In this document: in pieces, positions 5,936-35,860 of the stretch
Position numbering within the stretch: the first letter of the stretch is position 1
Layout of the letters: every line of letters starts with the position of its first letter
Origin: Hyalangium sp.
GTDB taxonomy: Bacteria; Myxococcota; Myxococcia; Myxococcales; Myxococcaceae
NCBI RefSeq assembly: GCF_045802625.1
Contig: NZ_JBJMQP010000096.1
Coordinates: 1 to 37,809 of the forward strand
Direction of reading: 5' to 3'
DNA: 37,809 nucleotides
The notes under the pieces: generated by a model
The model's input: the letters and a program-made list of their open reading frames with translations, nothing else
Database searches by the model: none
What the model was told of the DNA's origin: nothing
Made by a program: the position numbers and the translations under genes

Positions 5936-6604
5936 CTACTCCAGCGGCTGGCCGTCCTTCACCAACTCCGCGTTGCCGTGCTTGGTGCGCATCTCCGCGC
6001 TGGTGAAGCGCTGATCGGCGGGCATGGACCCTTTGGAGCTCAGCAGGCTCTTGGGCGTGAGGGTGAAGATGCTGCCGGCGTCGATCTTCTCCACCGTCGC
6101 GCGGTACGAGCCATTCACCACGAAGACGACGTCCTCCCAGGGATCGTTGGTGGTGTTGGTGACGGTCAGGCTGGGCGCGGCCTTGGGGCGATCCGCGTTG
6201 GGCAGCACCGTGACGCGCGCGCCGAGATCCGCTGTCTTCACGCCCCGGCCCGGGCACGCGATGATGATGCTCACCAGGGAGATGAAGATCCAACCGCCGA
6301 CGATCCCCGCCTTGGCCTTGACGAACCAGTCCGAGCCGCGGAAGTCCTGGGCCAGCTCCTTGACGATGGAGAGGGCGTTGAGGAACTGGTTGGAGGCCTC
6401 GGAGGCGAGGCGCTTGCTCACCTTGCCGTCGGGCTTCTTCTCGACCGGGGCCGCGCGCGCGGCGCTGATCGCCCGCATGCCGCCTGGGTTCGTCACCGTG
6501 CGGGGGATGCCGGGGCTGGAGACCGTGCGCGGAGGAGCCCCGGAGGACTCGGGGCCCTCCGTCGGCGGAGCGCTCTGTTCAGGCACCTTGCGACCTTCGC
6601 TCAT
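5936..6604 (-). CDS. hypothetical single-pass membrane protein with a Pro-rich N-terminus
   Basis: ATG start at 6604 and high GC3. One TM helix, IVGGWIFISLVSIIIAC. Lies 36 nt downstream of the TPR gene on the same strand. Confidence 0.6.
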   Translation of the reverse strand: MSEGRKVPEQSAPPTEGPESSGAPPRTVSSPGIPRTVTNPGGMRAISAARAAPVEKKPDGKVSKRLASEASNQFLNALSIVKELAQDFRGSDWFVKAKAGIVGGWIFISLVSIIIACPGRGVKTADLGARVTVLPNADRPKAAPSLTVTNTTNDPWEDVVFVVNGSYRATVEKIDAGSIFTLTPKSLLSSKGSMPADQRFTSAEMRTKHGNAELVKDGQPLE

Positions 6605-6640
6605 CGGACACCGAGTGTAGAGGCGAGGAGCGCCCGGTGG

Positions 6641-8029
6641 CTACTCCTGAGCCTTGATCTGTTGCAGCGCCCGCGAGGCCAGGGCGTTGTCCGGCTGCTC
6701 CTCCAGGACCTTGAGGAGCCACTTCTCCGCCTCCTGGCGCGACGCCTTGCGCTCCTCCGGCTTGCGGGCCTTCAGCGTCTCCTCGGTGAAGAGCAGCCCC
6801 AGGCGCAGGGCGAACTCCATGTTCTCCGGGTCTTTTTCGACCACACGCCGCAGCTCGCGCTCGGCCGCCGGGAAGTCACCCTCCAACTGGTACACCATGG
6901 CCAGCTTGCCCCGAGGCGGGGCCGCCTCCGGCTGCAGCGAGGTGAGGACGCGGAAGGCCTCGCGGGCGGCGGGGATGTCCCGTCGATCCAGGCTCAGGTC
7001 TCCGAGCCGGGACCAGGCGTCGTCCAGCAGCGGGTTGAAGGCCACGGCCTTGGTGAAGGCCTCGCGGGCCGCGTCCGCGCGCTGGCGCGAGAGGTACAGC
7101 TCGCCCAGATAGAACTGGTTCTTGCCGTCCCGGGGCGCCAGCTCGATGGCCTGCTTGAACTCGTCCACGGCCCGGCCCGCGTCATCCAGCCGCTCGTAGG
7201 CCAGCCCCAGCAGCGCGTGCACCACGGCCAGGTCCGGGTAGTCGTGGAGGATCTCCTCGAAGGCGAGGATGGCCTGCTGCGGAACATCCATCTCCTGGAG
7301 GAAGCGCATGCCCTCCTCGAGCTTGCCCTGGGCCGCCTTCGGGAAGCCGGCGAACGGGTCGGCGATCTGGTTCATCAGCGCCCGGGCCGTCGTGACTTCA
7401 GCGGGAGTGGGAGAGGCTCGGACGACGGCGCTCAGCGCGGCCACGGCGCCCGCGCTGTCCCCGGTGCGGTGCAGCGCCTTGGCCAGCGGGAGCCGGATGG
7501 CGGCGCGATCCGGAGTCAGCTCGGCGGCGCGGCGCAGCGGGCCCAGCGCGGCGGCGTACTGCTCGGACTCCAGGTAGGCGATGCCGAGGCGGTAGTGGAA
7601 CTCGGCCTCGCTGGGGGCCATGGCGATGGCGCGCTCGAAGGCGGCCACCGCGGGCGCTCCGGCGTCCGAGGACCGGGAGAAGTAGGCCAGCCCGAGCATG
7701 TAGTGGTTCACCGCTCGCTCGGACTGGGCGTTGCGGCGCTGGAGCTCCGCGATCCACGCATCCGTGTGGCCCGCCTTCACCTGGGCCTCGGTGAGCGCCC
7801 GGGCGATGTCGAGATCCTCCGGGCTCTTCGCGTGCAGCTCCTGCAGCAACGGCAGGGCTTTGGCGGGCTGGTTCTCTTCCAGATAGACGTGGGCCTGCTC
7901 GCGAGGGCTGAGCACTCGCTCCATCGAGGAGCCATGGCTGCAGCCGGTGAGGAGGCTCCAGCCGAGCACGGCGGCCAGGGCTTGCCGGCGGAGCAGGGAG
8001 ACGCGGAGGGTCGGGAGCTTCACGTTCAA
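6641..8029 (-). CDS. TPR-repeat lipoprotein
   Basis: Signal peptide with lipobox LLTGC, then about 10 TPR repeats. The start is TTG 8029 or GTG 8023. plsC ends 2 nt upstream. Confidence 0.75.
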   Translation of the reverse strand: MNVKLPTLRVSLLRRQALAAVLGWSLLTGCSHGSSMERVLSPREQAHVYLEENQPAKALPLLQELHAKSPEDLDIARALTEAQVKAGHTDAWIAELQRRNAQSERAVNHYMLGLAYFSRSSDAGAPAVAAFERAIAMAPSEAEFHYRLGIAYLESEQYAAALGPLRRAAELTPDRAAIRLPLAKALHRTGDSAGAVAALSAVVRASPTPAEVTTARALMNQIADPFAGFPKAAQGKLEEGMRFLQEMDVPQQAILAFEEILHDYPDLAVVHALLGLAYERLDDAGRAVDEFKQAIELAPRDGKNQFYLGELYLSRQRADAAREAFTKAVAFNPLLDDAWSRLGDLSLDRRDIPAAREAFRVLTSLQPEAAPPRGKLAMVYQLEGDFPAAERELRRVVEKDPENMEFALRLGLLFTEETLKARKPEERKASRQEAEKWLLKVLEEQPDNALASRALQQIKAQE

Positions 8030-19605: not shown

Positions 19606-20145
19606 GTGAAATCTCCCTCGAGCCCCTCTTCTTTTTGGCAGGTCTGGTTGCAGCACAAAGACCATTTGCATCAACAGAGCCTTCGTCTGATGGGAGGGAG
19701 TGAGCCCGATGCGGACGACGCGCTGAACACCGCCATGCTTCGCGCCTTGCAGCGGTTCTCTTCCTCGAGTGGAGAGATCCACAACGAGAAGGCCTGGCTG
19801 AGCCGGATCCTCTACAACGTCTGCATGGACCTTCACCGCGAGCGCCGGCGCCGGGTCGACCCGGAGGAGCTGCTCGAGGAGGCGGAGATCTCGTGGGGCG
19901 CGCCTCTGGAGGACTCACCGGATGAGGTGCTGCTCCAGCGCGAGCGGGCCGAGGAGATCCACGGCTGCATCGAGGCGCTGCCCCTCAACCTGCGCAAGCC
20001 CTTCACGATGCGCTTCCTGCAGGACATGTCCTATGCGGACATTGCCCTGCACCTGCAGCTGACCAACTGCAACGTGAGGAAGCGCATCCAGCTTGCCTAC
20101 GGCATCCTCCGCGTCACGCTGGCGGAGGTGCTCCTCGCGCGCTGA
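19606..20145 (+). CDS. ECF-type RNA polymerase sigma-70 factor
   Basis: Region 2 (DALNTAMLRALQRF, ILYNVCMDLHRERRR) and region 4 HTH (MSYADIALHLQLTNCNVRKRIQLAYGILR) are present. GTG start. GC is lower than in neighbouring genes. Confidence 0.85.
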   Translation: MKSPSSPSSFWQVWLQHKDHLHQQSLRLMGGSEPDADDALNTAMLRALQRFSSSSGEIHNEKAWLSRILYNVCMDLHRERRRRVDPEELLEEAEISWGAPLEDSPDEVLLQRERAEEIHGCIEALPLNLRKPFTMRFLQDMSYADIALHLQLTNCNVRKRIQLAYGILRVTLAEVLLAR

Positions 20146-25115: not shown

Positions 25116-25132
25116 CCCTGGAGAGAAGACCC

Positions 25133-25504
25133 ATGACCGAGAAGACCAAGAGACCCGAGTGGATGAAGGCGTTCTTCCCGCCCCCGAAGGAAGGCGAGGC
25201 CACGTACAGCGCTCTGTTTGACCTGGGGCGGGCGTCCCTGCTGCAGGCCGCCACCGCTCAGCGAACCGCGCTCGAGTTCTACCGGCAGTTCACGGAGGGC
25301 GATGGCGACGAGCGCTCGCTGCGCGCGTACCAGGAGGGGCTGCTGCGCAAGATGCTGGAGGCCATGGACCCCTTCTTCGCGATCGAGCAGCCGGTGCGCC
25401 AGCAGGCGCTGAAGGCGCAGGCCGCGCTGCTCGATCTGTGCGAGGAGAGCCTGCATGGCTTCCTGAGGTACAACGAGGAGCGGAACAGCTCCAAGTCCAC
25501 CTGA
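25133..25504 (+). CDS. small helical protein, phasin-like (PHA granule-associated), co-transcribed with the patatin gene
   Basis: 123 aa, predicted all-helical and amphipathic (MTEKTKRPEWMKAFF...ALEFYRQF...). SD GGAGAG lies 7 nt upstream of ATG 25133, 18 nt after the patatin stop. Confidence 0.5.
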   Translation: MTEKTKRPEWMKAFFPPPKEGEATYSALFDLGRASLLQAATAQRTALEFYRQFTEGDGDERSLRAYQEGLLRKMLEAMDPFFAIEQPVRQQALKAQAALLDLCEESLHGFLRYNEERNSSKST

Positions 25505-25579: not shown

Positions 25580-27277
25580 TCAGCTCTGCTTCGCGCCCGC
25601 GCGGGCCAACGCCTCGCGGCCTCCTGCCAGATAGAGCTGCTCCCATTGCAGGAGTTGCGTGGGAGTCACCCCCAGCTTTTGAGCGGACTCCAGCCGGCGC
25701 GCGGCCAGCTCCAGCACCGCACGCTCGAGCTCCTCGTGGCCCTGGGGCTTGCTCGGAGGAGTAGGGGCCGGTGGCGGCGCCGTCAGGGAGAGCAGCCCCA
25801 AGGTGGACGGGAGGGTGCTGGCCGGCGCCGGCTGTGCCAGCGGCAGCCGCACCGCGGGATCCCCAAGGAGGATGTAGCCGCCCAGATCCTGGCGGAGCAT
25901 CCACAGGTGGGCCCGCTGCAGCGGATCCACTGGTGAGGGCCGCCCGGCGCCCCGGGCCTCCTCTTCCTGATCATACAGCGTGGTCAGCTCGAGGTTGGCC
26001 TGGTGGCCCCCCCGCAGCAGCCACCCCAGGCCCACTCCGGCGCGGCGTCCCCGCGCGAACTGTTGCAGCGGCTCCAGGAAGCGGGAGGTCTTGCCGCGGC
26101 GGCTGTCGCGATCCTGGAAGCCATACGTCCAGGCCAGGTCCACGTGGCCGAAGACCGCCAGCGGCCCGTTCGGGTTGGCCAGCGCGGCCTGGGGCAGCGC
26201 GGCGACGAAGGGCCGCTCTCCGGGCTGCGGGAGCGAGGAGGTGATGGAGTCGAGCCTCCCGCTGAACTGCCCCCCTGCCTGGAGCTGCCGCAGCCAATGC
26301 TGGAACGCGCTCCGCGACGGAGTGCCCGCGCCGAAGCAGGCGAAGAGGAACCAGATGCCGCCCGGCAGGAAGGGCCGGCTGGCCAGGGAGGCGCCGTCCA
26401 GGTGTAGTCCTTCCCCCAGGTTCATCGCGCCCTGGAGCGCGAGCTTCTCGTCCGTGCTGCGCCAGCCGGCGCGCGGGCTGCCGAGCCCGTGGCTCATGCT
26501 GAAGAGGATCCCAGGCCGTGGCTGTGATGCCTGCTCGAGCAGCTCGGTCACACCGCCCTTTCCGGGCCCCCCGAGCTCTAGCAGCTCCCGCATGGGGAAT
26601 CTGCCCAGCTCACGGGCCTGCTGGGCGGCGACGAGGCCTGGCGCCACCAGCGCCTGGTAGCCCGTGGAGGTCGCCGCGGTGCCGTCATGGACCGTGAAGA
26701 AGAGCGCGCGTGCCTGCTCCTCGGTGGAGGGCTCGCGCTCCCAGCGGAGCACCTTCGCCACGTAGGACTCGTAGTCCTGCTCGCGCCGGAAGGCCAGCCG
26801 CCCGACGAAAGCACTGCTGGCCGCGCACTGCTGCAGCTCGAAGGGCACCTGGTCGAAGTCCCCGAGGAACAACAGGTAGCGCGGCCGATCCGCCACCGGC
26901 ACCGACTCGTCATCGAGCACGGTGCGCACCCAGCGGGAGAAGTGCTCCAGGCTCCGGGCCTCCGCGGCCAGCCCTGGCTTCACCCGGTAGATGCGGACAG
27001 GGTGACCGCCCTGATCCTCCTGCCGCCGCCGGCGCAGGGGCTCGATGAGGGCGAGCAGCCGGTCGCCTTCGGGCCCCTCGGGAGCGACGAGGCCCCAGCG
27101 CTGCGCGGGCAGTGAGTTGGGATCCTCGCCATCATCCCAGAGGTGGCTCTCCTCCCGGGCCTCCTGGGACTCGCTGGGAGGGGCCTGCGCGGCGGCTGCC
27201 GCTGGCACCCCTTGGGGGGTTACGGGTTCGTGGGAATCAGCGTGGACAAGTAACAGCTCCAGGTTCTCCGTGCTCAA
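25580..27277 (-). CDS. gingipain-like (peptidase C25, clan CD) cysteine peptidase with no signal peptide and a C-terminal HTH
   Basis: C25 blocks YLLFLGDFDQVPF, catalytic His ILFSMSHGLGS, catalytic Cys IWFLFACFGAGTP, and GGYILLGDPAVRLPL. After a Pro-rich linker the C-terminus reads LELAARRLESAQKLGVTPTQLLQWEQLYLAGGREALA, which resembles the IS3 OrfA HTH. TTG start at 27277. Confidence 0.7.
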   Translation of the reverse strand: MSTENLELLLVHADSHEPVTPQGVPAAAAAQAPPSESQEAREESHLWDDGEDPNSLPAQRWGLVAPEGPEGDRLLALIEPLRRRRQEDQGGHPVRIYRVKPGLAAEARSLEHFSRWVRTVLDDESVPVADRPRYLLFLGDFDQVPFELQQCAASSAFVGRLAFRREQDYESYVAKVLRWEREPSTEEQARALFFTVHDGTAATSTGYQALVAPGLVAAQQARELGRFPMRELLELGGPGKGGVTELLEQASQPRPGILFSMSHGLGSPRAGWRSTDEKLALQGAMNLGEGLHLDGASLASRPFLPGGIWFLFACFGAGTPSRSAFQHWLRQLQAGGQFSGRLDSITSSLPQPGERPFVAALPQAALANPNGPLAVFGHVDLAWTYGFQDRDSRRGKTSRFLEPLQQFARGRRAGVGLGWLLRGGHQANLELTTLYDQEEEARGAGRPSPVDPLQRAHLWMLRQDLGGYILLGDPAVRLPLAQPAPASTLPSTLGLLSLTAPPPAPTPPSKPQGHEELERAVLELAARRLESAQKLGVTPTQLLQWEQLYLAGGREALARAGAKQS

Positions 27278-27451: not shown

Positions 27452-27469
27452 GTGTGATCGCATTCACAC
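27452..27469. promoter_or_regulatory. CRP/FNR-type palindrome GTGTGA-tcgcat-TCACAC
   Basis: Perfect TGTGA-N6-TCACA. It lies in the divergent intergenic region, 73 bp upstream of ATG 27542. Confidence 0.4.
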
Positions 27470-27541
27470 CGTGGCGCTGTTTGGCGTCCTGGGAGCGTAG
27501 CACCCGGCACATGCCGGCAACTCAACCCCTAGGAGGAAGTC

Positions 27542-27853
27542 ATGTCATCCGCAGCCCAACTCTCTCATTACATCATCGCGTTCGCGGGCGCCGCGCGCAC
27601 CGCTCAGAAGCTCATGTCCTCGGGCATGGATCCGATGACGATCGCCGAGTACTACTTCGAGGTGAACATCACCTCGGACTTCGAGCTGAAGAGCGAGACG
27701 GACGTCACCCTCAACATCTGGCGCATGAGCATCAAGGAGAAGCTGACGCTCGACTACAAGGAGCACATGGGCATCACCGTGAAGTGCACCATCAAGCCCT
27801 CGGCCGTGCTCGCCGCCCAGGCCAGCGGTGGCGGCGGCGGCGCGGCGTCCTGA
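27542..27853 (+). CDS. small hypothetical protein A (103 aa)
   Basis: Perfect SD AGGAGG 5 nt upstream of the ATG and high GC3, but overall GC is lower than genome average. No known motif. Gly-rich C-terminus. Confidence 0.7.
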   Translation: MSSAAQLSHYIIAFAGAARTAQKLMSSGMDPMTIAEYYFEVNITSDFELKSETDVTLNIWRMSIKEKLTLDYKEHMGITVKCTIKPSAVLAAQASGGGGGAAS

Positions 27854-27962
27854 TAGGGCACGCCTCTCCCTGACAACCCAGATCTGACAATCAGCACCGC
27901 CGGTGTTCCCTCTGGGAGCGCCGGCGGTGCTGGCACGCCAGCTACCCCTCATTGGATCTCCC

Positions 27963-28409
27963 ATGGCAAAGCCTAACCAGACCACCGATCACGCCCAGGT
28001 TCTCATCCACGATCTCATCCTTGCCGTTCAGTCCTCGTTGGACATCGCTGAGGATACGGCCCGCAAGCACTATTCCTTCTCTGTCGCGGAGCTGGAGGTC
28101 TCCGCCAGCTTCGACTTCGAGATGACGGAGCAGGACAACGACATTCCGGACGACAAGCCGCAGCCCAAGCGCTGGTTCTCGCTCTTCGGCGGCAAGAAGG
28201 AGCCGGCCTCGCGCGCACGCACGCACGACTTCTCGGAGAAGGACTCCAGCAAGCTCACCGTCCGCATGCTGTTCCGGCCTGGCGGCAAGCTCCTGGTGTC
28301 TTCGACGCCGCCGCTGTCAGAGGGCTCGACCGCTCCGGCCGAGGATCCGCCCAGCCAGCCCGAGGCCGCCGAGCCCGCTCCTCCGCCGGCGGGAAAGCGC
28401 TCCAAGTAG
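27963..28409 (+). CDS. small hypothetical protein B (148 aa), paralog of protein A with an insertion and a Pro/Glu-rich tail
   Basis: Shares an N-terminal helix with A, plus HY.F.V / SFDFE / W / LTV blocks (A: YYFEVNITSDFELK..IWRMS..ITVKC; B: HYSFSVAELEVSASFDFEM..RWFSLF..LTVRM). ATG 27963 is preferred over the track start 27903. Confidence 0.55.
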   Translation: MAKPNQTTDHAQVLIHDLILAVQSSLDIAEDTARKHYSFSVAELEVSASFDFEMTEQDNDIPDDKPQPKRWFSLFGGKKEPASRARTHDFSEKDSSKLTVRMLFRPGGKLLVSSTPPLSEGSTAPAEDPPSQPEAAEPAPPPAGKRSK

Positions 28410-28459: not shown

Positions 28460-29461
28460 TCACTTCGCCTGGAAGAGCTTGCGCTTCTCGAAGGCGTCCT
28501 TCACCGCGTCCGAGACCTGGTGCCCCCGCGCGGCCATCAGCCCCGCGACATCCACGGGCTTGGACACCGCGCAGACACCGGTGGGGTTGATCGCCGTCAT
28601 GTACCCATCCCCGCAGTCCGCGCCGTGAGCCTTCAGGATCGTGCCGAACTGCAGCTCCGCCATCAGCCGGAGCAGGTGGTGGGTCCGCTCGACCTCGAGC
28701 TCGGGCGACTCGCCGCGCACCTGATGATCCCAGTGGATGAAGCGCAGCGTGCCAACCGGCGTGTAGTTCCAGTGCATCAAGGCCTGGAAGCGCTTGCCGA
28801 TGTCAGGCACCTGGCGGAGCAGCTCGAGGAGCGATGTCGAGGGGGGCAGGTGCGGGACGGCGTCGTCCTGGAACTCGAAGCGCTGGTGGATGTTGTGGAA
28901 CGGGTAGGCCTTGGCGAACCCCACGTCACCACACTTGGGGGCGGCGAAGGTGAAGATGCCCGCGGGCTCGATGCCCTCGAGGCGGGCGAACCGCATGGCC
29001 GCGAGCGTGGCCATGGCCCCGCCCTTGTTGTGGCCCGTGAGGTAGAGGGGGAGCGTCTTGTCCCCAGCCTGGCGCAGCGCCCGGACCTGCGGCAGGAGCC
29101 GGGACCAGAGCGCATCGAGCGAGCCCCAGAACCCCGCGTGCAGCGCCCCGGGGATGCCAGGCACGGAGATGAGCTCGGCGTGGAAGTCGTTCATCCAGTC
29201 GAGCGCGGGGGCCATGCCTCGCTCCGTGGGAGGCAGGGTGCCGCGGAACGCGACGACCACGGCGTTGAGCGCGCTGCTGCGGCCCACCAGGCACGCGTCG
29301 ACGTGGGGCTTCCCGGCGCCTCCGACGATGGCGACAGGGGCGATGAGTCCGGAGGCGCTGTCATAGGGAGGATAGGAGGAGGAGAACGAGCCATTGGATT
29401 GGACGGCATAGCTGTAGACACTGGCACAGAGCATCTGGCCTTCGAGGGTGGGTGCGGGCAT
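28460..29461 (-). CDS. lipase class 3 / DUF2974 (Mbeg1-like) alpha/beta-hydrolase homolog with Asn replacing the nucleophilic Ser
   Basis: LYLTGHNKGGAMATLAA corresponds to G-H-S-[LK]-G-G in lipase_3/DUF2974. ATG 29461 with SD AGGAAG. No signal peptide. Confidence 0.7.
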   Translation of the reverse strand: MPAPTLEGQMLCASVYSYAVQSNGSFSSSYPPYDSASGLIAPVAIVGGAGKPHVDACLVGRSSALNAVVVAFRGTLPPTERGMAPALDWMNDFHAELISVPGIPGALHAGFWGSLDALWSRLLPQVRALRQAGDKTLPLYLTGHNKGGAMATLAAMRFARLEGIEPAGIFTFAAPKCGDVGFAKAYPFHNIHQRFEFQDDAVPHLPPSTSLLELLRQVPDIGKRFQALMHWNYTPVGTLRFIHWDHQVRGESPELEVERTHHLLRLMAELQFGTILKAHGADCGDGYMTAINPTGVCAVSKPVDVAGLMAARGHQVSDAVKDAFEKRKLFQAK

Positions 29462-29627
29462 GAGCGCTTCCTGTTTGGGGTTGAGATTGGGGGGAGCCCA
29501 ATCGCAGGGGAAGACGCCGCGGGAATGCACCTCGTGAAAGAGCGAGCCGCTTCACTGCGGGAGCCGGCCGCACGTCCTTCAGCACAGCCACCCATTGAAG
29601 GGGGCCTTTGCGCTGGAGAAGCCGCGG

Positions 29628-30350
29628 ATGCCATTGTCGACCAAGCCCGAATACCCTCACGACTACAACCCAGACAACACTTGGAAGAGCCTCGTACCCA
29701 GGGGTGGCAATCCCGCCGCCTGGTTCAAAGGGGCCGCTGGCATGGCCAGCCTCATCCAGGAGCGTCAGGGGGTGGGCTTCACCGAGGGCCCCATCTACCG
29801 GGTGCCCCTGGGCCGCTGTGTAGCGTGCCTGGTCCAGTTCCCGGTCGCCGCGCTGACGATCGAGAGCATCATCCATTACGACACCTACGCCGGGAAGGCG
29901 CTCGGGCCGCAGGATCTGGTGAACATGCACAACGACACGTCCAACCTGACGTTCCTGTGCAAGGGCTGCCACGCCAGCAAGGATCTCGAGCCGAGTACGC
30001 TCTATGACTGGATCATGGAGACCGTGCGGCTCGAGGAGCACGGGACGCGGCTGAGCCAGGTCCAGGTGGTGAGGCAGGCCTGGCTGGACATGGAGCGGGT
30101 CGCGGCGCAGCAGTTCCTCCACATGGACCTGACGGGCCTGCAGCACGTGCTGGCCGACCCCAACCTCAGCCCGAGATCCCAGGCGGCCGCGCGAATGGCT
30201 CGCATCAGCCTGGCGGGCCAGAAGGCGCTCAATGACGCGCACTTCCTGTTCGACTTTCATCTGGCGAAGGATGTGGAGCTGCTGGCCCACCAGCTCGAGG
30301 CCGAGGCCAAGCTCCACTTGCAGCCCGGTAAGTCCAAGCCCGTTCCGTAA
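29628..30350 (+). CDS. HNH endonuclease-domain protein
   Basis: GRCVAC...IIHYD...VNMHNDTSNLTFLCKGCHASKD fits the C-x2-C/H-N-H core, followed by a helical C-terminal domain. ATG 29628; the track gives TTG 29595. Confidence 0.7.
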   Translation: MPLSTKPEYPHDYNPDNTWKSLVPRGGNPAAWFKGAAGMASLIQERQGVGFTEGPIYRVPLGRCVACLVQFPVAALTIESIIHYDTYAGKALGPQDLVNMHNDTSNLTFLCKGCHASKDLEPSTLYDWIMETVRLEEHGTRLSQVQVVRQAWLDMERVAAQQFLHMDLTGLQHVLADPNLSPRSQAAARMARISLAGQKALNDAHFLFDFHLAKDVELLAHQLEAEAKLHLQPGKSKPVP

Positions 30351-30406: not shown

Positions 30407-31006
30407 TCAGCGGCTCAGCAGCTTCAGCGCCTGCTGGTAGTACGCATCACGAGACGACTTGCCATTGTAGCCGCCGTTGATGCGGTAGGTGATTGCGTCG
30501 AGGTTGCCCTCGTCCGCGTACTTGTTGAGGTGATGGCTGGTCCAAAACCAGACGGCCGTGCGGAACCCCACCTCGGGCTCGGCGGCGCGGTTGGGGTTGT
30601 TCTCCAGATCGATGTCCAGTGCGGCCCCCGCGGCGCGGTAGTTGGCGCGGCCGGTGATCTGGATCGGACCGCGGCCCTTGTAGCGCACGCCGTCGCCCGG
30701 TTGGACGTTGCCCAGATCCCGCCGCCCCTCGTAGGCCTTCCCCGAGGCCAGCTCCTCGAAGTAGCGGAGCTCTCCGCTCTCGTGAGCGAGCTGCGCCAGG
30801 AACGCCGCCCGCCGGCGAGGGGTGTCGATCCCTCCCTCGGCCATGGCCGCATTCAGGTGGGGCAGCAGCGCGATGGCGTGCGCCTCGGGCAGCTTGCGCA
30901 TGAGGGCGCGGAGCTGCTCCAGCGTCACTCCTTGCGAAGTGCTCGTCGCGGGTGCTGCGGGGGGGATAGGCGTGTCGGGGGAGGGGGAGGAACCGGAGGA
31001 TGACAT
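30407..31006 (-). CDS. glycoside hydrolase family 19 (chitinase/endolysin-like) peptidoglycan hydrolase, with no signal peptide
   Basis: FLAQLAHESGELRYFEE carries both catalytic Glu, and YKGRGPIQITGRANY is present. A Pro/Ser linker lies N-terminal. ATG 31006; an alternative GTG 31111 would leave only 6 nt after the upstream gene. Confidence 0.8.
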   Translation of the reverse strand: MSSSGSSPSPDTPIPPAAPATSTSQGVTLEQLRALMRKLPEAHAIALLPHLNAAMAEGGIDTPRRRAAFLAQLAHESGELRYFEELASGKAYEGRRDLGNVQPGDGVRYKGRGPIQITGRANYRAAGAALDIDLENNPNRAAEPEVGFRTAVWFWTSHHLNKYADEGNLDAITYRINGGYNGKSSRDAYYQQALKLLSR

Positions 31007-31117
31007 GGGGAGCTCTCGGGCTTGGCGGCCACAGCAGAAGGTGGACCTGATGGATGCCTGGAAGACGCCTGGACCAGAGCGCTTGTGACTGGCGGACGGG
31101 GCCTGGAGCACTCTGCC

Positions 31118-34100
31118 TCAAGGCCGCGGGGCGGGCGGAGTCCGATCATGCGTCTGTTCGCACGAGGCGGACGCCTGCCGCGCCGGAGCTGGGAGATCGC
31201 CTAGATAATTCTGGCGCTCCCAGGCCGTCAGACAGGCCGAGCTGGCCGCCTGGAGCCGCTCCTGGAGTGAGTCCATGGGGAGGGGCTCGCGCGGGCGCCA
31301 GAGGCGGGCGCTCCCATCCGTGGAGCCGGTGAGGAGCTGCACGTCTTCCCCTTGGGGGCTGAACGCGGCCGATGTCACCTGGCCCTCGTGCGAGGAGAGG
31401 ACGAGGTGGGGCTCCCGGGTATCGCTGGCGAGCCAGAGGCGGACGCGCGCATCCGCGCAGGCGGTGACGAACCGGCTTCCATCCGGGCTCCAGGCGGCCC
31501 AGAGCACCGGGGCTTCGTGCCGGGCGACGAATTGGACCCCGTGGACCTTGCCCCCCTCCACGCGCCAGATGCGTGCCGTGCCATCCTGTGAGGCGGTGAG
31601 CACCCGCGTCGGATCCTGGGGATGGAAGGCCGCCGAGAGGACCCAGTCGTCGTGCCCGTAGAGCGTGGCGAGCAGGTTCCCCTCCGTGCTCCAGATGCGT
31701 GCCGTGCCATCCTGGGAGGCGGTGAGCACCCGGCGGCCATCCGCGCTGAAGGACACGGAGCGGACCTGGGCGCCATGTCCCTCGAGCAGGATGGCACGCC
31801 GCGGGTCGTCCACACGGACGATCCGGGTGGTGCTGGCGCCCGAGGCGAGCGCCACCCACTGTCCGTCGGGGCTGAACGCGGCGCCGAAGAGGGGCTCCTG
31901 CTGGGACACCAGGATGCGGCCCGCCGCGTGCCCATCCGAGGGCCAGATGCGCGCCGTTCCGTCCCGGGAGGCTGTCAGCAGCCACTTCCCATCCTGGCTG
32001 AAGGCCACCGAGAGCACATCCTGGGTGTGCCCCTGCAGCACGCGCATGTGCCGGCCGTCATCCGACCAGAGGCGCACCGCGCCATCCTGCGAGGCCGTGG
32101 CCACCCGCGCTCCGTCAGGGCTGAAGGCAACGGACCAGACGAAGCTGCCCTGCCCGGGCAGTGGGCGCGAGTCCCTCGGCTCGTCCATTCTCCAGACCCT
32201 CGCGGTGGCGTCGACGGAGCCCGTCACCATCTGCTTCCCATCCGGACCGAAGGCACCCCACAGGAGGGTGGAGCGGTGCCCTCGCAGGATCCGCGGGGGC
32301 TCGGAGTCGTGGACGGACCAGAGCCGCGCGGTGGTGTCCGAGGAGACGGTGAGGATCCGGTCTCCCAGCGGGCCGCTGAAGGTGGCCATGCGGACGGCAC
32401 CCTGGTGTCCGCGCAGCACCCGGGGCTCGCCGCTCCCGTCCGCCCTCCAGAGCCGGGCGGTGTTGTCCACGGAGGCCGTCACCACCCACTGCCCATCCGG
32501 GCTGAAGCGCGCGGTGGTGAGCTCCCCCTGGTGCCCCTTCAACAGCACGGGTCCTCCCAAGCCGCTGACAGGCCAGATGCGGGCGATGCCATCCCGCGCG
32601 ACCGTCAGCACGCGGGTCCCCTCCGGATCGAACAGGGCGGAGGTGACGGTGGCGGCATGAGGCAGTTCGCGGGGACTGGCTGGCGCATCGAAGGACAGGA
32701 TGCGCGCCTTGCCATCCTGCGAGGCGGTGACCAGCCTCTTCCCATCCGGGCTGAAGGCCACGGTGGAGACGGGGCCCTGATGACGCAGGACGAGCGGCTC
32801 GGCCACGGTCTCGAGCGACCACACCCGCGCCATTCCATCGCGCGAGGCGGTGGCGATCTGCCGTCCATCCGGACTGAAGGCGCCCCACTGGACCACGCCG
32901 CGGTGTCTGAACTCTCGCAGGAGGTGTCCATCCGAGGTCCGCCACAGGCGCGCCGTCCCATCGTGCGAGGAGGTGAGGACCAGCGCCCCGTCTGGAGGGC
33001 TGAAGGTGGCGTGGTAGACCGGCCCCTCGTGGCCCGCCAGCACGAGGGGATCCCCCTCGCCATCGGTCCGCCAGATCCGCGCCGTACCATCTCGCGACGC
33101 CGTCACCACACGCTGCCCGTCCGGGCTGACCTCGACGTAGACCACGGCCTCCTGGTGGCCTCGCAGCACGGCGCGGCTCAGAGGTTGTTGGAGGACCTCC
33201 GAGACATCCCTGTCCCAGCCCTGGAGCTGCGACGGCTCCTGGATCTCGCGCAGCGTGAGCAGGGCCAGCGTGGGGTTCTCGTGCAGCATCGTCCGGGCCA
33301 CGCCCAGCCGGATGAGATCCCTGGCGCGCAGGGCGTACCGCTGCGCCTCCTGCCGCTCCCGCTGCTCCTGGGCCTCGTGCCGCCTGGCGTTCCAGGCCAG
33401 CCCCGCCATCGCCGCGGCAACCCCTATCGCCGCGGCGAGCAGCCCCAGCAGGCGGCGGCGGGCGGCCTGCTGCCGGGATTCGGCGCTGGCCACACTGGCG
33501 TCGATGAGCTGGAGCACGTCCGCGCCAGGATCCTCGTCGTACCGCTCCAGGACACGCTGGGAATACCCGAGCCGGCTGCCAGAGAGCAGATAGGGGGCTC
33601 CTCCATCCGCGTCTTCCCGGTGCGCCAGCCACGAGCGAGCCCAGGCTTGGAGCTCTCGGAAGTGCTGGAGGCGCTCGCGGTCCGCCAACGCCCACTCCAC
33701 GAGGGCAGGCCAGGTGCGGATCAGCGACTCGTGGGAGAGCTGCAACCACTCTTCGCCCGCCTGGCCCTCCTCGCGGATGAGGAGCCGGGCGGTGAGCAGC
33801 GCCTCGAGGACCTGCTCGAACGCGTCGCGCGCCTCCTGCGCCGTGGGGCGTACGTGCTCGAGCATCGCCCGCCTGCGCGTGCCCGGGGAGGCGCCGTGCT
33901 GGAAGTCCACCAGCTCCACCAGGAGCCTGCGCGCCTGGCGCTGCTCGGCGGGGGACAGCGCCGCGTAGAGGCGATCCGCTGCCCGCGTCAGCGCCCCGGC
34001 TACCCCACCAATGGCTGCATAGGCGCGGTGGGTGAGCTGGCCGCCGTCACGCCCCTCCCACAGCTGATCCAGCGCGTATTGCAGCAACGGCAGCGAGCCG

Positions 34101-35860
34101 GGCTCCTGTCCCACGTCCTGGAGGAGCCGATCCACCAGCCCCGGCTCGAACGTCAGCCCCACCTTGTGCGCCGGGCCCACGATGGCGGCGCGGAGCTCCT
34201 CGCCTTGAAGCTCCGTGACGAAGAGGCGGTGAGCGTCGGAATACACCACCGCGTCCAGCCGCGTCCCGGCCTCATCCACCACCAGCTCTCCGCAGCGCCC
34301 GAGATAGTCCACCCGGAGCGTGGCGAGCACGATCACCTGCCGCTCTGGATCTCGCGACAGCTCCCAGAGCGTGGCGGCCAGGGCTCGGCGTGCCTCGGGC
34401 TCCGTCAGCTGGGTGAAGAGCTCCTCGAATGGATCCACGAGCAGCAGCTGGCGCGGACAGGAGGACTGGCGAAGCTGCTGGAGCGTCTCGGTGGGCCCTT
34501 GCCCCGGGCGAAGCACCCGGACCTCCCAGTCGGAGGCCGGGAGCGCATGGAGCAGTCCGGCGAGGGCGAGCGAGGACTTGCCGCTGCCCGAGGCTCCCGC
34601 CAGCACCTGGAAGCGCGGCCGCCGCCCGTCCAGTGACTCCTGGATGCGCTGGAGGAGCTCCTGTAGGAGCCGCTCGCGCCCGAAGAAGAACCGGCGATCG
34701 GTTTTCTGGAAGGGCAGCAGGCCGCGGTAGGGCCGGATTGCCACCGGGCGTGTATCACTCCCATCCTCCGCTCGGGCGTAGAGCTGCACGGAGGCGTAAT
34801 CCAACGACGAGCTGTCGCGTGCGAGCTCGCGCCGGGCCTGTCCCATGGCCTCCTCGAGCGAGCAGGGCTGCGCCAGCAGAGAGCGGTAGAGGCTCGCGGT
34901 GAGCACTGAAGAGCCCGCGATGGACAGGGGCAGACGGGAGGCCACCACCGCCTGGATGCCCGCGCGGTGGAGCGCCTGGGCCACGCTGCCCAGGTGGTTG
35001 CCCGCCAGGCCCGCGCCGCTCTGGCACGCGGCGAGCACCACCAGCCGCAGCGTCCCCGCATGGGGCGCCAGCAGGTGGCGCAGGGTGGCGCCGTCGATGA
35101 GCTCGGGCTCGCCCCCCTCCCACGAGGCATCCCAGAGCAGGCCATAGGTCTGGCCCCGCCGGCTGCCGTGACACAGCAGGTGGAGGATGGAGATGGGTTC
35201 TCCAGGACGGGCCAGCGCCTCCCCGAGCGCCGCGAGCGAGACGTTCGGCAGGACGTCGCGGGCGGGATCAAACGGATGATCGCCCTCCTCGCAAGCCTGG
35301 CTCAGTGCGCGCAGGTGGGGCTTGTCCGGGACATGGCCTCCCGCGGCGGACCAGGCGTAGAGGATGCGCCCGCCCCGCGGTGTCCCGGCCAGAGGCGCGG
35401 CGTGCGTGTCGGGCCACTCGTAACGGATGAGGACACCGGGGAGCTCGGCCAGCGCTTGCCCGGAGGTCCCCAGCGTCAGCAGCTCCCAGGGCAGCGCGTA
35501 AAGCTCGGCCGCGGCGAAGCGGAAGGTGAGGTGCACGGGGCGCCCTTGCTCCACCGCGGCGAGGATGTCGCGTGCGTGGGCATTCCAGCCCACCCCCTCC
35601 AGAAAGGTCCGGAGCCGGTCCCCCAGGCGCTGCACCACGCTTCGGTCTGGCTGGAGCCGCTCCAGCTCCGCCAGGTCCGCCAGCAGCGGGGGCTCCCAGG
35701 AGAGCGCCGCTCGCGCATAGCTCCCATGCGCCCGGCGCAGCAGGTACTCCTGGGGCTCGAGCCGGAAGTGGAAGGGATCTCCCGCATCCTGGCCGCGCAC
35801 CAGCTCCAGGAGCAGCTCGAGCGGGGCGGCCTTTCTGATCACCGGGGAGGACATGTTCAC
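31118..35860 (-). CDS. CHAT (caspase-like) protease-STAND NTPase-TM-WD40 multidomain protein (1580 aa)
   Basis: CHAT His/Cys dyad at ISILHLLCHG and LVVLAACQSG. P-loop GASGSGKSS, Walker B LLLVDPFEE. One hydrophobic helix LLGLLAAAIGVAAAMAGLAW at aa 803-822. About 14 WD40 repeats from aa 895 to the end. The GTG start overlaps the SBP stop (GTGA); ATG 35854 is the alternative. Confidence 0.85.
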   Translation of the reverse strand: MNMSSPVIRKAAPLELLLELVRGQDAGDPFHFRLEPQEYLLRRAHGSYARAALSWEPPLLADLAELERLQPDRSVVQRLGDRLRTFLEGVGWNAHARDILAAVEQGRPVHLTFRFAAAELYALPWELLTLGTSGQALAELPGVLIRYEWPDTHAAPLAGTPRGGRILYAWSAAGGHVPDKPHLRALSQACEEGDHPFDPARDVLPNVSLAALGEALARPGEPISILHLLCHGSRRGQTYGLLWDASWEGGEPELIDGATLRHLLAPHAGTLRLVVLAACQSGAGLAGNHLGSVAQALHRAGIQAVVASRLPLSIAGSSVLTASLYRSLLAQPCSLEEAMGQARRELARDSSSLDYASVQLYARAEDGSDTRPVAIRPYRGLLPFQKTDRRFFFGRERLLQELLQRIQESLDGRRPRFQVLAGASGSGKSSLALAGLLHALPASDWEVRVLRPGQGPTETLQQLRQSSCPRQLLLVDPFEELFTQLTEPEARRALAATLWELSRDPERQVIVLATLRVDYLGRCGELVVDEAGTRLDAVVYSDAHRLFVTELQGEELRAAIVGPAHKVGLTFEPGLVDRLLQDVGQEPGSLPLLQYALDQLWEGRDGGQLTHRAYAAIGGVAGALTRAADRLYAALSPAEQRQARRLLVELVDFQHGASPGTRRRAMLEHVRPTAQEARDAFEQVLEALLTARLLIREEGQAGEEWLQLSHESLIRTWPALVEWALADRERLQHFRELQAWARSWLAHREDADGGAPYLLSGSRLGYSQRVLERYDEDPGADVLQLIDASVASAESRQQAARRRLLGLLAAAIGVAAAMAGLAWNARRHEAQEQRERQEAQRYALRARDLIRLGVARTMLHENPTLALLTLREIQEPSQLQGWDRDVSEVLQQPLSRAVLRGHQEAVVYVEVSPDGQRVVTASRDGTARIWRTDGEGDPLVLAGHEGPVYHATFSPPDGALVLTSSHDGTARLWRTSDGHLLREFRHRGVVQWGAFSPDGRQIATASRDGMARVWSLETVAEPLVLRHQGPVSTVAFSPDGKRLVTASQDGKARILSFDAPASPRELPHAATVTSALFDPEGTRVLTVARDGIARIWPVSGLGGPVLLKGHQGELTTARFSPDGQWVVTASVDNTARLWRADGSGEPRVLRGHQGAVRMATFSGPLGDRILTVSSDTTARLWSVHDSEPPRILRGHRSTLLWGAFGPDGKQMVTGSVDATARVWRMDEPRDSRPLPGQGSFVWSVAFSPDGARVATASQDGAVRLWSDDGRHMRVLQGHTQDVLSVAFSQDGKWLLTASRDGTARIWPSDGHAAGRILVSQQEPLFGAAFSPDGQWVALASGASTTRIVRVDDPRRAILLEGHGAQVRSVSFSADGRRVLTASQDGTARIWSTEGNLLATLYGHDDWVLSAAFHPQDPTRVLTASQDGTARIWRVEGGKVHGVQFVARHEAPVLWAAWSPDGSRFVTACADARVRLWLASDTREPHLVLSSHEGQVTSAAFSPQGEDVQLLTGSTDGSARLWRPREPLPMDSLQERLQAASSACLTAWERQNYLGDLPAPARQASASCEQTHDRTPPAPRP

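Follow-up and report, generated by a model that had tools for sequence, protein, structure and literature searches.

Genes A and B, two adjacent small genes on a 37,809-nucleotide stretch of Hyalangium sp. DNA (RefSeq contig NZ_JBJMQP010000096.1; hereafter, the window), encode proteins that we propose to form a two-subunit, Pepco-like β-barrel death effector, which in myxobacteria would be gated by a neighboring protease. We give this reading a probability of about 0.5. It would imply that the pair is homologous to Trypco2 proteins, assembles into oligomers that contain both subunits, carries a cleavage site, forms pores, and serves in defense. The likeness to Pepco in architecture, tail, and genomic context is strong; membership of A and B in the Trypco2 family is unproven. 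The genes and the tail of B lie as follows (GC3, guanine–cytosine content at third codon positions).

27542..27853, plus strand: gene A, 103 amino acids, GC3 0.91
27963..28409, plus strand: gene B, 148 amino acids, GC3 0.83, ATG at 27963
28281..28406, plus strand: coding region of the C-terminal tail of B, residues 107–148, GGKLLVSSTPP...PPPAGKRSK

Kaur et al. (eLife 2020, PMC7159879) gave the family its first name; they defined Trypco1 and Trypco2 as small proteins found together with trypsin-like peptidases in conflict systems that contain NTPases. Both were renamed Pepco in a 2025 preprint (bioRxiv 10.1101/2025.11.14.688446). SsPepco, a protein of 117 amino acids, constitutively forms 9–10-mer β-barrels that resist sodium dodecyl sulfate (SDS) and heat; they are hydrophobic outside and charged in the lumen, with amphipathic helices at the base. 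The protein becomes lethal once the adjacent protease removes its C-terminal tail (10.1101/2025.11.14.688446). A and B are likewise non-enzymatic proteins of ~100–150 amino acids in which an N-terminal helix is followed by amphipathic β-strands with a charged face. B alone adds a disordered C-terminal tail rich in proline and charged residues (24% Pro and 21% charged, compared with 20% Pro and about 35–40% charged in the cleaved tail of SsPepco), and the myxobacterial A and B genes adjoin a cysteine protease linked to a STAND-type sensor, as Pepco genes adjoin serine or cysteine proteases that are linked or fused to such sensors. There are differences as well. A and B are two obligatorily paired, probable paralogues, whereas Pepco is a single gene; B has an insertion of ~40 residues at the tip of its hairpin; the conservation of A greatly exceeds what is typical, and the tail of A is short and Gly-rich or missing. 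Most lineages with A and B have no protease beside them and have partners that combine a zinc-ribbon-like region with tetratricopeptide repeats (Zn-ribbon-TPR proteins). Finally, Pepco occurs mainly in Actinobacteria and Cyanobacteria, whereas A and B occur in Myxococcota, Proteobacteria, and Paenibacillaceae.

A and B are genuine genes under purifying selection. Codon statistics by frame give the GC3 values listed above and second-position values (GC2) of 0.46–0.48 in a window of 68% GC. Ratios of nonsynonymous to synonymous substitution rates (dN/dS) against the Cystobacter and Corallococcus orthologues are 0.22–0.34 for A and 0.20–0.32 for B. A is 83% identical to its counterpart in a Bacteriovoracaceae genome and 74% identical to that of Pleionea, though synonymous sites are saturated. 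The sequence of B recurs with 100% identity in a Hyalangium sp. metagenome-assembled genome, and B has 16 close homologues. Its start is the ATG at 27963: all homologues begin MAKPNP, and the longer GTG start at 27903 has no homologue support. The initial annotation, made from the sequence alone, had described two small genes of lower GC content with a strong ribosome-binding site. GC3, dN/dS, and the homologues bear out the genes, and coding statistics together with conservation exclude spurious open reading frames (ORFs). The GC difference is real and modest (0.625 for A and 0.651 for B vs 0.682 for the window); it reflects amino-acid composition and not foreign origin, because GC3 stays high. 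The ribosome-binding site holds for A, and not for B, upstream of which inspection of the sequence reveals no obvious Shine–Dalgarno sequence. The GGAG core of the A site is kept in the orthologous regions of other myxobacteria.

27531..27536, plus strand: ribosome-binding site of A, AGGAGG, 5 nucleotides before the ATG, read from the sequence

Both proteins consist of a helix followed by a hairpin. In A, the helix (residues ~2–25) leads through an invariant loop, M25-S-S/T-G-x-D-P-M-T/V-I34, into a hairpin (32–58 and 61–86) that ends in a short Gly-rich tail of 17 amino acids (87–103). In B, the helix (~6–36) precedes a strand at 39–49 (..SFSVAELEVSASFDFE..), a disordered insertion at the hairpin tip (~55–95), a second strand at 97–106 (KLTVRMLFRP), a conserved PGGK, and a disordered tail. 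The internal insertion and the Pro/acidic tail (107–148) that had been noted in B at the outset are both real. The tail spans 42 amino acids and is predicted to be disordered; we regard it as a candidate latch that a protease could remove.

The hairpins are strongly two-faced. Both strands of A show unbroken dyad alternation, over 28 and 26 residues, with hydrophobic moments of z = 4.3 and 4.5. One face of the hairpin is hydrophobic. The other carries acidic residues along strand 1 (E, E, D, E, E, D) and basic residues along strand 2 (R, K, K, K, H, K, K), and the sequence of the B hairpin follows the same acid-then-base pattern. The helices are modestly amphipathic (z = 1.1 in A and 2.1 in B; 0.8 in SsPepco). 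AlphaFold2 (AF2) monomer models built with family alignments give A and B the same topology, helix plus hairpin, at a predicted local distance difference test score (pLDDT) of 55 and 59, respectively; in each, prediction is most confident for the N-terminal helix. The amphipathic helix and the hairpin with one charged and one hydrophobic face that mark Pepco are thus found in A and B alike, in AF2 models of low pLDDT. Such poor monomer confidence would fit a fold that forms only upon oligomerization. Foldseek, which the initial annotation had suggested, returns for the A model only non-significant PDB matches (best E = 0.017), all to hairpin stems of β-barrel pore toxins (the anthrax protective antigen (PA) pore, CDTb, iota Ib, beta-toxin, VCC, lysenin, and aerolysin); for the B model it returns no PDB match.

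A and B are likely, but not proven, to be distant paralogues. BLASTP gives no alignment between them, and hhalign of A against a narrow, myxobacterial B alignment gives a probability of 0.2%. We widened the B family with the partners of A in other phyla, followed by an exhaustive hidden Markov model (HMM) search of 1.84 billion representatives, which found only 23 clusters; the resulting B superfamily alignment has 27 members. Against it, A aligns over 90 collinear columns, from the helix to the last strand, with 34% probability, P = 4.2e-4, and a score of 27.0. Column-shuffled controls score 9.4 ± 2.2 (maximum 18.0 in 150 runs), with the caveat that shuffling wipes out secondary-structure periodicity, and the reversed control scores 18.2. 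This signal emerged only once the B family was widened: the paralogy proposed in the initial annotation stands at the profile level and fails by BLASTP and by the narrow profile. The blocks said to be shared, S.DFE, W, (L/I)TV, and (R/K)P, are recovered by the profile alignment. Gene order lends independent weight to paralogy. In Pleionea and its relatives, A and B are divergent, each followed by a Zn-ribbon-TPR gene for a protein of ~230 amino acids, and the two Pleionea TPR genes are themselves paralogues with 43% identity. These mirror-image cassettes indicate duplication of a unit of small protein plus TPR gene.

Neither A nor B matches a family in Pfam (E ≤ 0.1), NCBIfam, PADLOC, or PHROG; NCBIfam returns only scattered noise for the 27 members of the B superfamily, and PDB sequence searches with A, B, and Trypco2 profiles give no match. 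A is a new, unannotated family, and none of its members matches Trypco2 in Pfam. The earlier statement that the pair shows no motif of any family is correct for A; the B superfamily, in contrast, repeatedly matches Trypco2 (PF19631, Pepco) below the gathering cut-off of 24.2 bits. Trypco2 is its top Pfam family, matched by 9 of the 27 members (best E = 0.0042) and by 2 of the 16 close B homologues; any other Pfam family is matched by at most 2 of the 27. The two matches that we have in detail run in register over the helix and strand 1: residues 19–66 of P0059 align to profile positions 2–47, and residues 16–56 of the B protein of locus L005 to positions 4–45. The positive control, SsPepco (WP_069919158.1; sequence from the supplement of 10.1101/2025.11.14.688446), matches PF19631 at 65.6 bits with E = 5e-18.

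Profile comparison points in the same direction. The B superfamily aligns with Trypco2 over 92 in-register columns, at 7.9% probability and P = 0.0044, with a Trypco2 alignment that is small and shallow (four Streptomyces proteins, from plasmids). The score of 22.4 compares with 8.8 ± 1.6 for the shuffled null and 14.4 for the reversed control. When scored with B-family HMMs, real Trypco2 proteins rank above 99.7% or more of 4000 shuffles. Neither two metagenome scans nor a viral scan yielded further Trypco2 homologues, and a plasmid tblastn returned only 7 Streptomyces records.

The pair is rare and widely spread. A has 40 homologue clusters in a collection of 5.8 billion proteins, at 51–95% identity and none with a Pfam domain, and it is present in 20 of 185,579 species genomes, at 44–90% identity. 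These genomes belong to Corallococcus, Cystobacter, Bacteriovoracaceae, Desulfobacteraceae, Pleionea, Kangiellaceae, Sedimenticolaceae, Thiodiazotropha, Zetaproteobacteria, Paenibacillus, Cohnella, and Anaerolineae. The A alignment holds 18 invariant and 15 near-invariant positions; among these are positions in a helix of small residues, (A)FAGAA..AQ, and in the loop MS(S/T)GxDPM(T/V)I. In all 30 A loci that we fetched (about 22 distinct, from at least 7 phyla or classes), a match to the B-superfamily HMM is adjacent, whether downstream, upstream, or divergent. A–B pairing is obligatory across phyla. Over the same loci, B has diverged to less than 20% identity. Some loci have two copies of A or a third, degenerate paralogue. 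Searches with A found no match in viral contigs or plasmid records.

Several loci merit mention for their gene content. On the metagenomic contig L009, a degenerate A-like ORF of 112 amino acids (6491–6829, plus strand) lies between A and B; it has a helix like that of A, a weak hairpin, and a Pro/charged tail of its own. Genomes of Sedimenticolaceae and Thiodiazotropha have two A paralogues, with a TPR gene after one and B after the other. Two further contexts point to mobility of the module. A Rickettsiales contig that resembles a plasmid (L004) encodes RepA_C, ParD/ParE, and a restriction enzyme of the Eco47II type in addition to A and B; in Cohnella kolymensis (L026), they sit beside a tape-measure-like ORF of 1046 amino acids and other phage-tail-like ORFs. 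The paired A copies are located as follows.

L006, 6001–6294 and 8492–8785: paired A copies
L024, 7932–8282 and 10771–11064: paired A copies

In Hyalangium and other myxobacteria, the pair is flanked by two kinds of peptidase.

25580..27277, minus strand: C25-like (clan CD) cysteine peptidase with a C-terminal helix-turn-helix (HTH) domain, 565 amino acids, divergent from A
30407–31111, minus strand: GH19 lysozyme-like gene, preceding the CHAT–STAND–WD40 gene; the two are kept together in all myxobacterial loci
31118..35860, minus strand: CHAT (caspase-like)–STAND NTPase–WD40/TolB propeller protein, 1580 amino acids, PADLOC SAVED_CHAT E = 3e-32

The C25-like peptidase (Pfam Peptidase_C25, E = 5.3e-6; HTH_28, E = 2.4e-5) shares a 264-bp intergenic region with A. 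Its His262 (SHG) and Cys313 (FACFG) are kept with annotated C25-family peptidases on plasmids of Planktothrix, Sinorhizobium, and Nostoc, and the gene is syntenic in 6 of 6 myxobacterial loci; it is the candidate activating protease. The CHAT–STAND–WD40 protein is a candidate sensor-protease that we infer to be linked to A and B; its Cystobacter orthologue carries CHAT, nSTAND1, and WD40. The whole block (C25-HTH, A, B, GH19, and CHAT–STAND–WD40) is syntenic in Cystobacter and four Corallococcus genomes, such that A and B have a protease and a sensor beside them here and at five further myxobacterial loci. The plasmid-borne C25 homologues of Planktothrix, Sinorhizobium, and Nostoc adjoin giant proteins with CHAT, WD40, or ATP-binding domains, which suggests a recurring system of C25 peptidase and CHAT–NTPase. 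Homologous pairs beside CHAT or C25 peptidases, for which the initial annotation had recommended a search, are thus found within the myxobacteria, whereas most lineages have no neighboring protease.

Taken together, we envisage the following mechanism. A and B would be diverged paralogues of a Pepco/Trypco2-like fold that build a small oligomeric β-barrel, probably a ring of mixed A and B subunits, hydrophobic on the outside and with a charged lumen that an acidic and a basic strand would line. The disordered Pro/acidic tail of the myxobacterial B would hold the assembly harmless. Upon the sensing of a threat, a neighboring cysteine peptidase would cleave B inside the tail or close to its boundary at the conserved PGGK; the candidates are the divergent C25-like enzyme, the CHAT domain of the STAND–WD40 sensor close by, or both. 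The processed barrel would permeabilize the cytoplasmic membrane and kill the cell, as abortive infection or as a conflict response. Among the functions listed in the initial annotation (adaptor, immunity protein, peptidase substrate, or small pore-forming effector), the evidence favors a combination of the last two, and neither supports nor excludes the others.

The contexts of A and B in other lineages bear directly on the role of the protease. B proteins fall into a type with a tail and a type without. Tails are 19–32 amino acids long, acidic, Ser-rich, or Pro-rich, and follow a conserved PGG(K/R); they occur in myxobacteria, Bacteriovoracaceae, and some metagenomic lineages (L009-type). 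Tail-less B proteins stop 0–3 residues past the last strand. Within the limits that short contigs set to the comparison, protease neighbors accompany the tail-bearing type, namely the C25-like and CHAT proteins of myxobacteria and, in Bacteriovoracaceae, a retropepsin-like Asp_protease_2 (E = 8.5e-6). Tail-less B usually occurs with Zn-ribbon-TPR proteins (9 distinct loci in three phyla) or with nothing recognizable. The Zn-ribbon-TPR protein is the commonest third partner; it has ~230 amino acids, an N-terminal zinc-ribbon-like region (CxxC...CxC), and C-terminal TPRs. Gammaproteobacteria have two copies of the TPR gene, of which one follows A and the other follows B. Paenibacillus thermotolerans (L028) is an exception, in that its TPR-associated B retains a tail of 22 amino acids.

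L001, 6598–7293, minus strand: Zn-ribbon-TPR gene
L001, 8333–9025, plus strand: Zn-ribbon-TPR gene
L002, L006, L016, L018–L020, L024, and L028: further loci with Zn-ribbon-TPR genes

Two observations accompany these loci. Downstream of the Bacteriovoracaceae B (L005) lies a protein of 541 amino acids in which BLAST detects a CFGAG motif that the C25 peptidase also has. We do not regard this protein as a C25 homologue, because the alignment shows neither the catalytic His nor the Cys in it, and it is unrelated to the 457-amino-acid protein in the downstream position of L009. In Paenibacillaceae, an ORF of ~184 amino acids with no family match lies immediately upstream of A on the same strand.

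L025, 7374–7928: ORF of ~184 amino acids upstream of A
L026, 7368–7931: ORF of ~184 amino acids upstream of A
L028, 7400–7951: ORF of ~184 amino acids upstream of A

Several results weigh against a protease-gated, Pepco-like effector. In structural terms, the monomer models of A and B are of low confidence. In terms of family, no Trypco2 match in the B superfamily reaches the threshold (the best of those listed in detail has 17.5 bits), and the B of the window itself has no Trypco2 match. A gives P = 0.15 against Trypco2 by hhalign, and its HMM scores Trypco2 no better than shuffles; A is tied to Trypco2 only through B, because it has no direct similarity of its own. Shuffled controls, which destroy periodicity, overstate the case for homology. 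The extreme conservation of A is unusual for a defense effector, and there is no PADLOC, PHROG, or viral-contig signal. As to gating, the myxobacterial link to proteases is one of synteny within a single family-level clade. The gammaproteobacterial and Desulfobacteraceae loci combine a tail-less B with no protease within 7 kb, and the Paenibacillaceae loci show no protease, while two B proteins there keep short tails. Since the pair in these loci is accompanied by Zn-ribbon-TPR proteins or by no recognizable partners, protease gating cannot be general.

These observations lend themselves to an alternative in which A and B assemble, independently of any protease, into a ring, a barrel, or a filament that is regulated or targeted through the Zn-ribbon-TPR partners, with the myxobacterial peptidases as neighbors by synteny only; the product would be a toxin regulated in some other way or a non-lethal structure of the membrane or envelope. 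We consider this the main rival, if a rather doubtful one. The A–B pair is the sole universally conserved unit, the ~230-amino-acid CxxC..CxC and TPR protein is its commonest companion (the 9 loci and three phyla mentioned above), most TPR loci have a tail-less B, several loci have no recognizable partner, and the very strong conservation of A suggests a constrained structural assembly. It has to contend with the coincidence of tail-bearing B and protease neighbors in myxobacteria and Bacteriovoracaceae and with a Trypco2 resemblance that points to a protease-gated family. In a broader form, which we put forward as a tentative possibility, A and B would be an undescribed, phylum-spanning, two-subunit β-hairpin assembly with Zn-ribbon-TPR proteins as ancestral partners, and peptidases would have been wired in secondarily in some lineages, myxobacteria among them. 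If so, the pair would represent a new regulated membrane pore or ring, and the near-invariance of A would stem from a cellular target that is itself conserved or from exceptional constraints on a hetero-oligomer.

The asymmetry between the subunits can also be read as that of a toxin and its immunity protein or inhibitor: A would be a membrane-active toxin kept inactive by B, and removal or degradation of B, for example through its tail, would free it. The rates of change (44–90% identity for A and less than 20% for B over the same loci), the strict co-occurrence and adjacency, and the disordered tail on B alone all fit this account. We nevertheless judge it unlikely, in view of a common architecture and a full-length alignment that favor co-assembling paralogues, and of the divergent gammaproteobacterial A and B, each with a TPR gene, an arrangement atypical of toxin–antitoxin operons. 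Less probable still is a role in the peptidase/STAND system without a pore, whether as scaffold, adaptor, or simple substrate, for instance by helix-mediated recruitment in the manner of effector-associated domains. Both proteins are small and non-enzymatic, both lie near the C25-like peptidase and the CHAT–STAND–WD40 protein, and their N-terminal helices are the best-predicted parts; yet the pair is kept in many genomes without a STAND or peptidase neighbor, and an adaptor role leaves the long, perfectly amphipathic hairpins unexplained. Weak matches to the last two barrel strands of OmpW (PF03922; 8 of 26 A-family members, best E = 0.0038, below 24 bits) raise the idea of an outer-membrane β-strand protein. 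They are the same signal as the Foldseek matches to pore stems. We rejected the OmpW-like reading of A: it has no signal peptide, it is present in the monoderms Paenibacillus and Cohnella, and two strands are insufficient for a barrel. Such a protein, or the spurious ORFs already excluded, would be a very improbable explanation of the pair.

The proposed Pepco-like effector can be set beside other pore-forming proteins. Bacterial gasdermins are pore-forming death effectors that are released by proteases, are encoded near caspase-like or CHAT peptidases, and carry a C-terminal inhibitory peptide. They differ from A and B in size, ~240–270 amino acids against 103 and 148, and in their distinct α/β fold against a single hairpin in each protein. 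A and B have no gasdermin match in Pfam or PADLOC and no sequence similarity to gasdermins; the initial annotation was right to consider them too short. EACC1 needs a single cleavage for its activation and makes pores in membranes via β-strand interactions. It differs in that it is a monomer, autoinhibited until an internal cut at Asp49 splits it into an N-terminal and a C-terminal fragment, whereas A and B are built of helix and hairpin, with a tail in B; in Pfam, the A and B families show only the weak Trypco2 and OmpW matches and scattered others. Leukocidin-type, bicomponent β-pore-forming toxins offer a parallel in that two paralogous subunits could alternate and contribute one amphipathic hairpin each; unlike A and B, which have no signal peptides, these toxins are secreted, and they are large and bear cap and rim domains.

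Protease-activated pore formers (gasdermins, Pepco, and EACC1) represent an emerging major logic of bacterial immunity, with a parallel in pyroptosis. If our reading is right, this locus would add a two-subunit version, in which A is almost invariant from myxobacteria to Paenibacillus while B is fast-evolving and tailed, and in which the associated protease is clan-CD C25-like, not trypsin-like. The protease-less, TPR-associated relatives would then provide a natural experiment on how the barrel is controlled. If the Trypco2 link is wrong, A and B would be a compact and easily testable orphan system. As A and B are in no family library, these modules are invisible to current defense-finder tools.

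The region 5′ of A is conserved among myxobacteria and is probably a promoter and leader. It contains CATTCACAC (27461–69), a spacer of 15 nucleotides, and CGTCCT (27485–90), followed just before the ribosome-binding site by an inverted repeat with a variable spacer, CCCGGC..GCCGG (27503–27518). A scan for sigma-70 promoters and intrinsic terminators gave no match. An extracytoplasmic function (ECF)-type promoter with a leader hairpin is possible at 27461–27518; an ECF sigma gene (19606–20145) is syntenic.

27461..27518, plus strand: conserved 5′ region of A, with blocks invariant in an alignment of five myxobacterial upstream regions

Farther upstream, a small conserved ORF of ~108 amino acids (window ~25120–25504, plus strand; 5712–6038 in L003) follows a patatin gene beside PhaC/SDR genes. 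It has no Pfam match in Cystobacter, may be phasin-like, and is probably unrelated to A and B.

Downstream, two genes sit between B and GH19 in the window and are absent from Cystobacter and Corallococcus.

28460–29530, minus strand: Lipase_3 α/β-hydrolase gene, window only
29595–30350, plus strand: HNH-like ORF, window only

Caspase-type peptidases are known to pair with α/β-hydrolase zymogen effectors, and on the Sinorhizobium plasmid a weak Abhydrolase_8 protein precedes the C25 homologue; the Lipase_3 protein could, on these grounds, be a second substrate or effector.

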